Source: Pseudomonadota bacterium (GTDB taxonomy: Bacteria; Pseudomonadota; Alphaproteobacteria; Rhodobacterales; Rhodobacteraceae). Taken from it: 64,000 nt of DNA. The notes beneath the pieces were generated by a model. That model did not search any database, was not told the DNA's origin, and worked only from the letters and a program-made list of their open reading frames with translations. How positions within the stretch are numbered: the stretch's first letter is position 1; each line of letters begins with the position of its first letter. Both the position numbers and the translations under genes were made by a program. Shown piece by piece: positions 14,687 through 50,485 of this stretch. The stretch is from contig JBCCHJ010000013.1 of assembly GCA_039028795.1 (NCBI GenBank), positions 35,587-99,586 of the forward strand, written 5' to 3'.

Positions 14687-14769
14687 GCGTGCGTTCCCGT
14701 AGATTCTGCTGTCAGACTCAGCCTCAAATGCCTATGCTGTTCAGTGCCGGGCCGCAAGTTGGTCCCGGC

Positions 14770-14935
14770 CTGTTCTCAGGGCGGGGTGAAAGTCCCCACC
14801 GGCGGTGACGGGTGCAAAACCCGAAGCCCGCGAGCGCTTTCGTGTAGACCGGGTTGTCAGACCCGGCTGGATGAAAGGTCAGCAGATCTGGTGCGATTCC
14901 AGAGCCGACGGTGATAGTCCGGATGAAAGAGAACG
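14770..14935 (+). promoter_or_regulatory. FMN riboswitch (RFN element)
   Basis: TCAGGGCGGGGTGAAAGTCCCCACCGGCGGT...AGCCCGCGAGCG...GCAGATCTGGTGCGATTCCAGAGCCGACGGTGATAGTCCGGATGAAAGAGAA; upstream of ribH. Confidence 0.97.
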
Positions 14936-15019
14936 GCGAAGCGACGGCCGAGGTGCATCCCGCACCCGTCTGCCCTTTCGTCAGCCCTGAGGTCTTGGGA
15001 CGGATGAAAGGAGACAACG

Positions 15020-49572: not shown

Positions 49573-49854
49573 ATGACACCCAAGATCATATGCCTCGCCG
49601 CCCTTACCGCCATGATGGTGACAGCCTGTACCGGAGAGTCTAGCGAACGCAGCCTGGGCCCGGCCTGCCGCGATGGATTGGCCGCCGGAAATCAAGAGCT
49701 AAAGGATGCGAAGGCGCGTGGCTTGTCCGGCGCCGTCGGCTGGACCAAAGCTGCCAGCCTGCTCGCTGCCGCCAAGCTTCAACAGCAGTTCGAGGAATAT
49801 CAGAACTGCGTGGTCAAAGTTCGCGAAGCCCGGGGCTACATTAGGGAGCTTTGA
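49573..49854 (+). CDS. Small lipoprotein
   Basis: Lipobox-like MVTAC, helical body with a further Cys pair; GGGAG RBS. Confidence 0.75.
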   Translation: MTPKIICLAALTAMMVTACTGESSERSLGPACRDGLAAGNQELKDAKARGLSGAVGWTKAASLLAAAKLQQQFEEYQNCVVKVREARGYIREL

Positions 49855-49898: not shown

Positions 49899-49929
49899 TT
49901 GCGTCAACATTGCTGACATGTTATACAAT
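49899..49929 (+). promoter_or_regulatory. Candidate promoter for the tRNA cluster
   Basis: TTGCGT-17 nt-TATACA with a TGn extension (overlapping TACAAT) in an AT-rich stretch. Confidence 0.45.
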
Positions 49930-50036
49930 GCTTATGGAACGGACAGTCGCATACACTCATCGACTAGCCTTACTCGCCTGACGGCGGGTGAGGTCTGACG
50001 CGTTTCCATCGTCCAAAAACCTTCCCCGCCATCAAT

Positions 50037-50113
50037 GCGGGTTTAGCCCAAATGGTAGAGGCAACGGACTTAAACTCCGTCCAGTATCGGTTCGATCCCG
50101 GTAACCCGTACCA
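50037..50113 (+). tRNA. tRNA-Leu(TAA), short variable loop, CCA encoded
   Basis: Manual cloverleaf: GCGGGTT/AACCCGT acceptor, ACGGA-CTTAAAC-TCCGT anticodon arm, 5-nt variable CCAGT, TTCGATC T-loop, ACCA end. Confidence 0.92.
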
Positions 50114-50195
50114 CCCCTTTCCGCAAAGTTGCTGACTGACGTCAGCGCACTGGTTTCGCGGCAGTCGTCTCAAAGAGCCGATGAACGCAATCGAG

Positions 50196-50272
50196 GGGAG
50201 CGTAGCCCAACCGGAAGAGGCACTGCACTCAGACTGCAGGTGTTGCGGGTTCGACTCCCGCCGCTCCTACCA
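50196..50272 (+). tRNA. tRNA-Leu(CAG), short variable loop, CCA encoded
   Basis: GGGAGCG/CGCTCCT acceptor, CTGCA-CTCAGAC-TGCAG anticodon arm, variable GTGTT, GCGGG-TTCGACT-CCCGC, ACCA end. Confidence 0.92.
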
Positions 50273-50375
50273 TCTGACTTTTTCGAAGAAAAGTCGCCGA
50301 CATGAAAGCAAGCGCAACGGTATGCGCGATGGCTGTTTTGAAGAAACGGCAAAAGCTTCGCAAATGGCCAAATGC

Positions 50376-50449
50376 GCGAGGGTAGCCCAATTGGCAGAGG
50401 CAGCGTCCCGAGACGGCGTTCAGTGCGGGTTCGACCCCCGCCCCTCGCA
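50376..50449 (+). tRNA. tRNA-Leu(GAG), short variable loop, C33, CCA not encoded
   Basis: GCGAGGG/CCCTCGC acceptor, GCGTC-CCGAGAC-GGCGT anticodon arm, variable TCAGT, GCGGG-TTCGACC-CCCGC, A73. Confidence 0.82.
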
Positions 50450-50458
50450 GAGAAACAA

Positions 50459-50478
50459 AGGTGGGGCGAACCCCACCT
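50459..50478. terminator. Terminator hairpin between the tRNA cluster and the RidA gene
   Basis: AGGTGGGG-CGAA-CCCCACCT; T-rich tail on the minus strand. Confidence 0.75.
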
Positions 50479-50485
50479 CAAAGTA

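Follow-up and report, generated by a model that had tools for sequence, protein, structure and literature searches.

We analysed a cluster of three tandem leucine tRNA genes, together with the leader that precedes it, in a 64-kb stretch of DNA (the window; 64,000 nucleotides of contig JBCCHJ010000013.1, assembly GCA_039028795.1) from a bacterium of the Rhodobacteraceae. ARAGORN calls exactly three tRNA genes in the window, all on the plus strand, and the Rfam tRNA model, which has a gathering score of 29, gives them 54.1, 56.0 and 46.7 bits; the E-values are 8e-7 to 2e-9 when the whole window is taken as the search scope. The ARAGORN folds are regular cloverleaves with variable loops of 5 nucleotides (nt) each (CCAGT, GTGTT and TCAGT), and the three genes share a D arm of the form TAGCCCAA-NN-GG-N-AGAGGCA, with a 3-bp stem and a C13/A22 mismatch. 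The remainder of the core is of the leucine type as well, including A73, A14, the A15:U48 pair and the spacing of G18G19. The class II tRNALeu of the same genome, which have a long variable arm, carry a D arm (GGCGGAATTGGTAGACGC) of equal architecture, and only the long arm is missing from the trio. Neither a G3:U70 pair nor any other strong foreign identity element is present in the three sequences. All three anticodon loops contain C32, A37 and C38, and in the third gene C33 stands in place of the near-universal U33 (position 50408); A37 is the rule among the CAG members of the short-arm family. The original prediction, a reading of the window from its letters alone that preceded our work, had described three tRNA-Leu cloverleaves with short variable loops. 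Both programs agree on the genes, the loops, D arm, A15:U48 pair and A73 are as it described them, and the short loops are upheld by the covariance model. We consider the trio almost certainly to represent genuine type I tRNALeu, as the short-arm kind is called. With respect to the unusual C33, we observed this base in 21 of 38 distinct short-arm tRNALeu(GAG) and in 5 of 341 with other anticodons among the loci collected here (L021-L412); the closest orthologue of the third window gene (at L300) has U33.

Aligned copies of the module show that conservation begins about 140 nt upstream of the first tRNA gene. We compared this leader in seven copies, namely those of the window, L300, G021, L372, L135, G779 and L333 (Table 1), which fall into two subfamilies, A (the window type) and B. 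All seven contain the same promoter-like layout, in which TTGNCN is separated by exactly 17 nt from a -10 hexamer. The seven hexamers read TATACA, GCAAGC, TATCCA, TATCCG, ACATAC, TATTTA and TATTCC and are good in five of the seven; a generic sigma-70 consensus scan of the window did not call the site at 49899-49927. On the other side, between the trio and a convergent RidA-family gene, lies a GC-rich hairpin that was listed as terminator-like on the minus strand, which is also the strand of its T-run. This hairpin is probably the terminator of the RidA/DAO transcript, and transcription of the tRNA genes may stop there too. An own promoter-like site and a downstream hairpin had been anticipated, and indeed both are there, with the promoter site conserved in the homologues; the trio is predicted to form its own transcription unit.

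Between promoter and tRNA genes lies a mini open reading frame (mini-ORF). In all seven copies an ATG follows the -10 hexamer at a distance of 6-9 nt (6 nt in the window), a Shine-Dalgarno sequence is absent, and the distance between ATG and -10 hexamer corresponds to the geometry of a leaderless mRNA. The mini-ORF has 15 or 19 codons in the seven copies. Counted from the ATG, nine codons (27 nt) precede an invariant CGA-CUA, and every copy ends in Leu-Leu-Ala/Ser-stop. Each copy contains three to five Leu codons within its last five to nine codons; in the window, CGA (49961-63) is followed by CUA (49964-66), UUA (49970-72) and CUC (49973-75). The terminal Leu-Leu pair is spelled UUA-CUC, UUG-CUC, CUG-CUU or CUG-CUC in different copies, and we take this synonymous rewriting to be the clearest sign of a presumed constraint at the codon level. 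Leucine codon usage in the host genome is 48% CUG, 22% UUG, 13% CUU, 9.6% CUC, 4.4% CUA and 2.8% UUA. The three Leu codons of the window mini-ORF are hence the three rarest in the host, and CUA is the only Leu codon that cannot be read by the trio. No second copy of the leader was found in the host genome, and a leader ORF is absent from the other short-arm Leu clusters (the pairs at L397 and L349 and a Planctomycetota trio at L024). In IMG/VR, the pattern of the subfamily-A leader gave eight chance matches, none of them adjoining a tRNA, and the subfamily-B pattern had no match in viral contigs. Rfam assigned no family to the leader at E-values up to 10.

Table 1. Coordinates and properties of the module in the window and of related copies in other genomes (window positions count from the first letter of the window).
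Feature	Location	Strand	Description
Promoter-like site	49899..49927	+	-35 TTGCGT (49899-49904), 17-nt spacer, -10 TATACA (49922-49927)
Leader mini-ORF	49934..49981	+	MERTVAYTHRLALLA-stop; 15 codons; alternative in-frame ATG at 49928
Hairpin H1	49967..49994	+	5' arm GCCTTACTCGCC = last four sense codons; loop TGAC with stop codon; 3' arm GGCGGGTGAGGT
Region 3	50019..50030	+	ACCTTCCCCGCC; near copy of the H1 5' arm, just before tRNA1
tRNALeu(UAA), tRNA1	50037..50113	+	type I, 77 nt, CCA encoded, G1-U72, anticodon loop CUUAAAC
tRNALeu(CAG), tRNA2	50196..50272	+	type I, 77 nt, CCA encoded, G1-U72, anticodon loop CUCAGAC, A37 not G37
tRNALeu(GAG), tRNA3	50376..50449	+	type I, 74 nt, CCA not encoded, anticodon loop CCGAGAC, C33 and A37
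GC-rich hairpin	50458..50479		GGTGGGGC-GAAC-GCCCCACC; between trio and convergent RidA-family gene
Leader peptide, window			MERTVAYTHRLALLA
Leader peptide, L300			MKQVATYTYRLALLA
Leader peptide, G021			MKTMNVNSLRLALLA
Leader peptide, L372			MNTTFHISDRLSGLLILLS
Leader peptide, L135			MRMTWNISSRLSGQQPLLS
Leader peptide, G779			MRNTWNISTRLSGLADLLS
Leader peptide, L333			MNMSHTASSRLSGRLTLLS
Module copy, L300	locus L300		stand-alone trio; flanks: MarR, nitroreductase-like protein, M24 peptidase
Module copy, L372	locus L372		stand-alone trio; flanks: aspartyl-tRNA synthetase (AspRS), BLUF protein, zinc-ribbon protein
Module copy, L333	locus L333		trio after tRNA-Tyr and before eight more tRNAs, 11 tRNAs behind the leader; flanks: purC, GST
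Module copy, L135	locus L135		trio then tRNA-Gln; short contig of a genome labelled Parvularcula
Module copy, G779	contig C43, locus L429, 1-9500		leader and trio between small and large terminase genes, prophage-like region
Module copy, G021 (genus of the window)	contig C145, locus L005, 1340-1600	reverse	decayed module copy
Short tRNALeu(CAA), G037-G042	loci L002-L004, L007, L008		77-78 nt, mostly G1-U72

The end of the mini-ORF coincides with a predicted hairpin, H1, whose loop contains the stop codon. In the window H1 has 12 bp and a folding energy of -21.1 kcal/mol (z = -4.66), and 0 of 200 shuffled sequences fold as well; in the other leaders it is weaker, with z values from -1.1 to -2.5. 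Even so, a hairpin at the stop codon emerges as the consensus structure in subfamily A, where there is one compensatory pair, as well as in subfamily B, where there are two. In constrained as well as unconstrained folds, region 3 has two alternatives: it can pair with the 3' arm of H1 (the 2:3 pairing) or, via CCCGC, with the first five bases of tRNA1. The copy at L300 carries a compensatory change from G:C to C:G in the 2:3 pairing, while the role of the 3:4 hairpin is uncertain. A classical four-region attenuator with a 3:4 terminator was considered as well. The window accommodates it (CCCGC/GCGGG, then UUUA), but neither L300 nor subfamily B conserves it, and it remains one option among others. 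Several copies have U-rich stretches downstream of the hairpin, among them L300 (UUUCUGAUU) and G021 (UUUCGCGCGUUUUC). Two further pairings were set aside: a long-range pairing CCGCCCGC/GCGGGCGG around the subfamily-B ORF, the 5' arm of which overlaps the -10 box and the start region and which is probably irrelevant, and an apparent pairing between the ORF end and the tRNA1 5' strand, which recurs in folds in differing registers and which we do not claim.

The host assembly (160 contigs, 6.0 Mb) contains class II tRNALeu genes of 85-87 nt for the anticodons GAG, CAA, UAG, CAG and UAA, all on contigs other than that of the window. The counterparts of the trio are located on C75 (UAA), C55 (CAG) and C1 (GAG), and the type I genes are therefore not the sole isoacceptors. 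Because the full class II set is present elsewhere in the genome, the trio is supernumerary, in line with the auxiliary status that the original prediction had proposed for it; the possibility that these could be the only Leu tRNAs of the genome falls away with the same five class II genes. The genome has one gene for leucyl-tRNA synthetase (LeuRS), and a second synthetase was not found. Within the window the trio is flanked by genes for YqiJ, flotillin, a Sel1 protein and a lipoprotein on one side and by those for RidA and a DAO oxidoreductase on the other. There are no phage genes around this copy, and the trio there is not encoded by a phage or prophage. We also found no tRNA-dependent transferase beside the trio in the window, which leaves the suggestion of a Leu-tRNA pool for non-ribosomal use without support.

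The D-arm motif of the trio was used as a probe for related tRNAs and detected at least 119 loci in contigs of a collection with one genome per species. Among the genomic matches listed, the motif-bearing tRNAs have a Leu anticodon in 116 of 116 cases and a length of 74-78 nt. They come mostly from Actinomycetota (Nocardia, Mycobacterium, Corynebacterium, Gordonia, Amycolatopsis, Arthrobacter and Acidimicrobiia), with others from Planctomycetota, Poribacteria and a Rokubacteria genome, and they include a Myxococcus tRNA array and a 21-gene array in a Hyphomicrobiaceae genome. In many Actinomycetota and in others, the short-arm tRNALeu is a single-copy chromosomal gene. Among the matches listed from IMG/VR viral contigs, 102 of 105 motif-bearing tRNAs are Leu tRNAs, mostly situated within clusters of 10-38 tRNAs, which brings the genomic and viral matches listed to 218 Leu anticodons out of 221; matches in cultured phages of Pseudomonas, Vibrio, Bacillus, Mycobacterium and Synechococcus are annotated as tRNA-Leu. 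When the phage database was compared with the leader and trio together, only single-tRNA matches were returned. To judge from these matches, the motif marks one widespread type I tRNALeu lineage that is present in Actinomycetota, Planctomycetota, phages, tRNA arrays and, sporadically, Proteobacteria. As tRNAs, the window genes are therefore members of an already known kind and not a new tRNA type. The window trio belongs to the same tRNA family as the short-arm tRNALeu of phage tRNA clusters, and one copy of the trio is located in a prophage; unlike those clusters, the window copy is without phage genes and its leader ORF was not found in IMG/VR with the two patterns.

The statement that cellular bacterial tRNALeu are always class II, on which the original prediction had relied, is too broad in view of the single-copy short-arm genes of many Actinomycetota and of the case of Streptomyces coelicolor (PMC6614811). 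In this organism four class II tRNALeu are accompanied by a type I tRNALeu(CAA), and one LeuRS charges both types; the type I tRNA is also charged by human mitochondrial LeuRS (PMC6614811). The window trio resembles this tRNA (Fan et al. 2019, NAR) in its 5-nt variable loops, its Leu anticodons, the coexisting class II set and the single LeuRS. For S. coelicolor the likeness rests on the published description, and the same D-arm motif is seen on short tRNALeu of actinomycete genomes. The two cases differ in that the S. coelicolor type I tRNA is the sole reader of its codon and cannot be deleted (PMC6614811), whereas the window trio is redundant with class II genes. Moreover, the window has three tandem isoacceptors, A37 in the CAG and GAG members, a history of horizontal acquisition and a leader ORF. 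Closer to the window, a genus from a second family of the same order (G037-G042) has a single short tRNALeu(CAA) in five of six genomes (Table 1). Class II genes for GAG, UAG, CAG and UAA were found in these genomes, and a class II CAA gene was not found by pattern search, which is not a full tRNA inventory. The type I tRNA appears to be the only CAA isoacceptor of this genus, as in S. coelicolor. Since no class II CAA gene was found there, at least some LeuRS enzymes of the order probably use a type I substrate natively, as far as pattern searches can indicate.

Next to this broad tRNA lineage, the trio itself has a scattered distribution. Among 36 congeners of the host the motif is absent apart from one remnant (in G021), and it is likewise absent from about 395 genomes representing 138 genera of the same family. 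In an unbiased sample of the class, 4 of 400 other genomes contain the motif, and none of 60 relatives of the L135 genome (around G457) does. The order UAA-CAG-GAG of the window recurs in L300, L372, L135, L333 and G779, the last of which came from the class sample just mentioned, and the flanking genes are different in every copy (Table 1). The prophage-like region of G779 also encodes a Tpt1/KptA RNA 2'-phosphotransferase, a SUKH-1 (SMI1/KNR4) protein, a NusG-like protein and a CI/S24 repressor. The original prediction had seen no link to phages, and this stands for the window; elsewhere it does not, as the homologous trio of G779 lies among prophage genes. The remnant in G021, which brings the tally of the genus to one intact and one decayed copy, is situated at another chromosomal site than the window copy, about 2 kb from a class II tRNALeu(CAG). 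It has kept the promoter and the mini-ORF, with a 14-nt tandem duplication at the ORF end, and is left with one pseudo-tRNA of 90 nt in which the 5' part of a UAA-type gene is fused to the 3' end of a GAG-type gene and which neither ARAGORN nor Rfam calls.

Each window tRNA has its closest relative in the L300 tRNA at the same position (82, 85 and 95% identity); by comparison, tRNA1 shares 64-74% identity with the other two L300 tRNAs, and the three window tRNAs are 68-73% identical among themselves. Across the orthologues of the trio, 14 of 21 base pairs show compensatory double changes, which argues for selection on the tRNA fold. The trio has evidently been inherited as a unit, by horizontal transfer, and we regard it as very probably acquired and accessory. 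Because the flanks differ in all copies and the relatives lack the motif, the module is likely mobile and sporadic, with temperate phages as one likely vehicle. The congeners are 65-80% identical, and the genes that flank the trio in the window are found at unlinked places there, leaving no clean insertion boundary. A flanking direct repeat (12 nt, at 49822 and 50519, 11/12 matching) was considered as a target duplication and rejected, given that such a repeat is within chance expectation for 1.5 kb. Base composition gave no island signature at the locus, and the plasmid database contained no match to leader and trio. In a metagenome scan for the CAG/GAG loop type, we retrieved mostly long arrays, among which one recurring order is Ser-Tyr-Leu(GAG)-Leu(CAG)-Leu(UAA or CAA)-Trp-Cys. 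As a separate observation, short-arm genes for Leu(CAG), Leu(UAA) and Leu(GAG) follow closely on one another in a Planctomycetota metagenome-assembled genome (L024, 3550-3912), together with a 100-nt tRNA-Tyr call; the three anticodons are those of the window in another order, and a leader ORF is missing.

The spacers of the window trio (50114-50195 and 50273-50375) have 82 and 103 nt and are longer than those of the other trios (6-52 nt). They contain a TGACGTCA palindrome at about 50137-50146 and, in the second spacer, a hairpin GACTTTT-TCGAAG-AAAAGTC at 50276-50295 as well as a short stretch that repeats the tRNA3 5' end (ATGCGCGATGG at 50322, compared with ATGCGCGAGGG at 50372).

The explanation that we favour, tentatively and at somewhat less than an even chance for the whole of it, is that the module is an acquired type I tRNALeu mini-operon which serves as a reserve set under leader control. 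Neither the anticodon nor the long arm is what bacterial LeuRS relies on; it reads A73 and the D/T core. Since the trio keeps these elements, it is probably leucylated, and charging together with use in translation is the component of the explanation that we hold with reasonable confidence. The single LeuRS of the host would charge the three tRNAs, which would then work in translation, and their UAA, CAG and GAG anticodons would read UUA/UUG, CUG and CUC/CUU, that is, five of the six Leu codons and all but CUA. The control region would be made up of the promoter, a probably leaderless ORF of 15 codons with a C-terminal half of rare Leu codons, and the stop-codon hairpin. The conserved mini-ORF with its many Leu codons, together with the hairpin, lends some indirect backing to the conditional expression that the original prediction had suggested. 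The anatomy of the control region suggests translation of the mini-ORF. Where the ribosome stands on the rare Leu codons could then decide between H1 and the pairing of the H1 3' arm with region 3, and the choice of structure would set the amount of transcript or of mature tRNA; candidate steps for this regulation are intrinsic termination, Rho-dependent termination and processing of the tRNA1 5' end. In this manner, the output of reserve tRNALeu would be tied to the current capacity for leucine decoding. That the leader ORF acts as such a decoding sensor is, on its own, a possibility that we place just below the balance point. A more far-reaching version would make these the first tRNA genes under a ribosome-sensed leader peptide, with the leaderless rare-Leu ORF turning on the mobile type I reserve when the resident class II tRNALeu fail, for example through a tRNA-cutting toxin or a defence nuclease; the invariant CUA, read by host tRNA only, would be the sensor, and UUA, UUG, CUC, CUU and CUG would provide feedback. 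We consider this version doubtful.

Leader-peptide attenuators such as those of Escherichia coli leuL (upstream of leuABCD) and pheM (upstream of pheST) are one close parallel for the arrangement. They have in common with the window a short ORF between promoter and genes, cognate codons (including the rare CUA) near the ORF end, a stop codon adjoining or inside a hairpin and the possibility of alternative pairings. Unlike in leuL and pheM, the genes behind the window leader are tRNA genes and not biosynthetic or synthetase genes, the ORF appears leaderless, a clear U-run terminator was not found in the window leader, and there is no match to any Rfam leader family. Another parallel is offered by long tRNA arrays (Santamaria-Gomez et al. 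2021, PMC8421152; Morgado and Vicente 2018, PMC5966550), with which the trio shares supernumerary genes and a patchy horizontal spread. In the metagenomic arrays that we collected, short-arm genes for Leu(GAG), Leu(CAG) and Leu(UAA or CAA) stand side by side as a block homologous to the trio, and L333 joins leader and trio to an array. However, long arrays comprise ten or more genes for many amino acids, whereas the window has three genes, all Leu. The array of Anabaena is silent until translation is impaired, and its regulation involves direct repeats that cover both the -10 box and the start of transcription (PMC8421152); the window module has a leader ORF and hairpin instead.

Several observations speak against a reserve set under a leader sensor. 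The mini-ORF has no ribosome binding site of the Shine-Dalgarno type, its N-terminal residues are poorly conserved, and frame +2 is nearly free of stops too (2 stops in 7 leader sequences). The covariation counts are small, since the known leaders number just seven and fall into two subfamilies. Of the five intact leaders that were folded, three have an individually weak H1 (z -1.1 to -1.8). A canonical intrinsic terminator, in which a hairpin is directly followed by a U-run, is not conserved, and the 3:4 hairpin of the window is weak (5 bp, then UUUA) and not retained in L300. As E. coli LeuRS does not charge the S. coelicolor type I tRNALeu (PMC6614811), charging by the host enzyme is not assured. 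Finally, the module decays, as seen in G021 with its single fused pseudo-tRNA and in the missing encoded CCA of window tRNA3, and selection on it may therefore be weak or episodic.

Decay is also what would be expected if the trio were a neutral passenger, left over from a phage tRNA cluster or a long array and constitutively or barely expressed and of little benefit; its mini-ORF would then be a conserved element of RNA or DNA close to the promoter, or else have arisen by chance in a GC-rich leader. The patchy, short-lived spread (one intact and one decayed copy in the genus, 0 of about 395 genomes in the family, 0 of 60 around G457) agrees with this, as do the decayed G021 copy, the absence of an encoded CCA in tRNA3, the longer spacers of the window, the lack of a conserved terminator and the organization of L333, in which the same leader heads eleven tRNAs of many specificities. 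A passenger of this kind is harder to reconcile with three intact cloverleaves and with compensatory changes across orthologues that show purifying selection on the fold. Furthermore, promoter, ORF and hairpin have been kept in seven genomic contexts with differing flanks, and it is difficult to see how the Leu-Leu pair could be rewritten synonymously in the absence of constraint at the codon level; we judge neutrality rather unlikely. Alternatively, and as a special case of the reserve set, the trio could be a counter-toxin or counter-defence reserve that escapes an agent disabling class II tRNALeu, be it an anticodon nuclease, a VapC-type toxin or an arm-recognising enzyme, with the leader sensing the failure of decoding. 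The trio does lack the long arm and differs from the host loops at positions 32, 37 and 38 (in tRNA3 also at 33), C33 is enriched in short-arm Leu(GAG) (21/38 versus 5/341), the prophage trio of G779 is found alongside Tpt1/KptA and an immunity-type SUKH-1 protein, and the invariant CUA is the Leu codon that host tRNA alone can read. Passages in van den Berg et al. 2023 (PMC10264068) describe phage tRNAs that evade host nucleases by anticodon-loop changes, and a passage in PMC12803027 terms tRNA arrays putative anti-defence systems. On the other hand, a nuclease or toxin targeting tRNALeu was identified neither in the window nor in linkage with any copy, most copies are located among ordinary chromosomal genes, and the loop features are lineage traits shared with array tRNAs that need not be adaptations to this host. 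We view this special case as improbable.

Highly improbable, in our assessment, is a function outside leucine decoding, in which the tRNAs would be charged with another amino acid for recoding or mistranslation, or would feed a non-ribosomal enzyme that depends on aminoacyl-tRNA. Deliberate mistranslation tRNAs do exist in Streptomyces, and the G1-U72 pair and A37 of the trio differ from the canonical tRNALeu of the host. The rejection of a type I tRNALeu by the E. coli LeuRS (PMC6614811) could also be counted in its favour. Yet among the matches listed, which are drawn from different phyla, 218 of 221 combine the Leu-type D arm and A73 with a Leu anticodon, the trio has no G3:U70 or other strong foreign identity element, a second synthetase was not found and no tRNA-dependent transferase is nearby.

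Short-armed bacterial tRNALeu are thus known but little studied and have already been recorded in Streptomyces, phages and tRNA arrays. What is new here is, as judged from the seven copies, a recurrent and apparently mobile Leu-only trio that always travels with a Leu-codon mini-ORF and a hairpin. Control by decoding demand is known for amino-acid biosynthesis and synthetase genes. To our knowledge, leader control of tRNA genes by decoding demand is unreported, and we found no literature report of a leader-peptide attenuator preceding tRNA genes. If the mini-ORF of the proposed reserve set is a sensor, the supply of tRNA could follow decoding demand at a single operon. The module also bears on the question of why phages and arrays hold Leu tRNAs of the wrong shape, and on how broad the acceptance of bacterial LeuRS is.

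Two additional observations were made in the host genome. On contig C36 (14866-15011), outside the window, there are two abutting tRNA-like genes of 74 nt that were called Leu(UAG) and Val(UAC). Both have ordinary 4-bp D stems (GTAGCTCA...) and are therefore outside the type I Leu family; the 'Leu' gene has G73 and a mismatch in the acceptor stem, and the pair may derive from a phage. Within the window, a flavin mononucleotide (FMN) riboswitch (RFN element) is located on the plus strand at 14768-14938, with 113 bits against a gathering score of 66.

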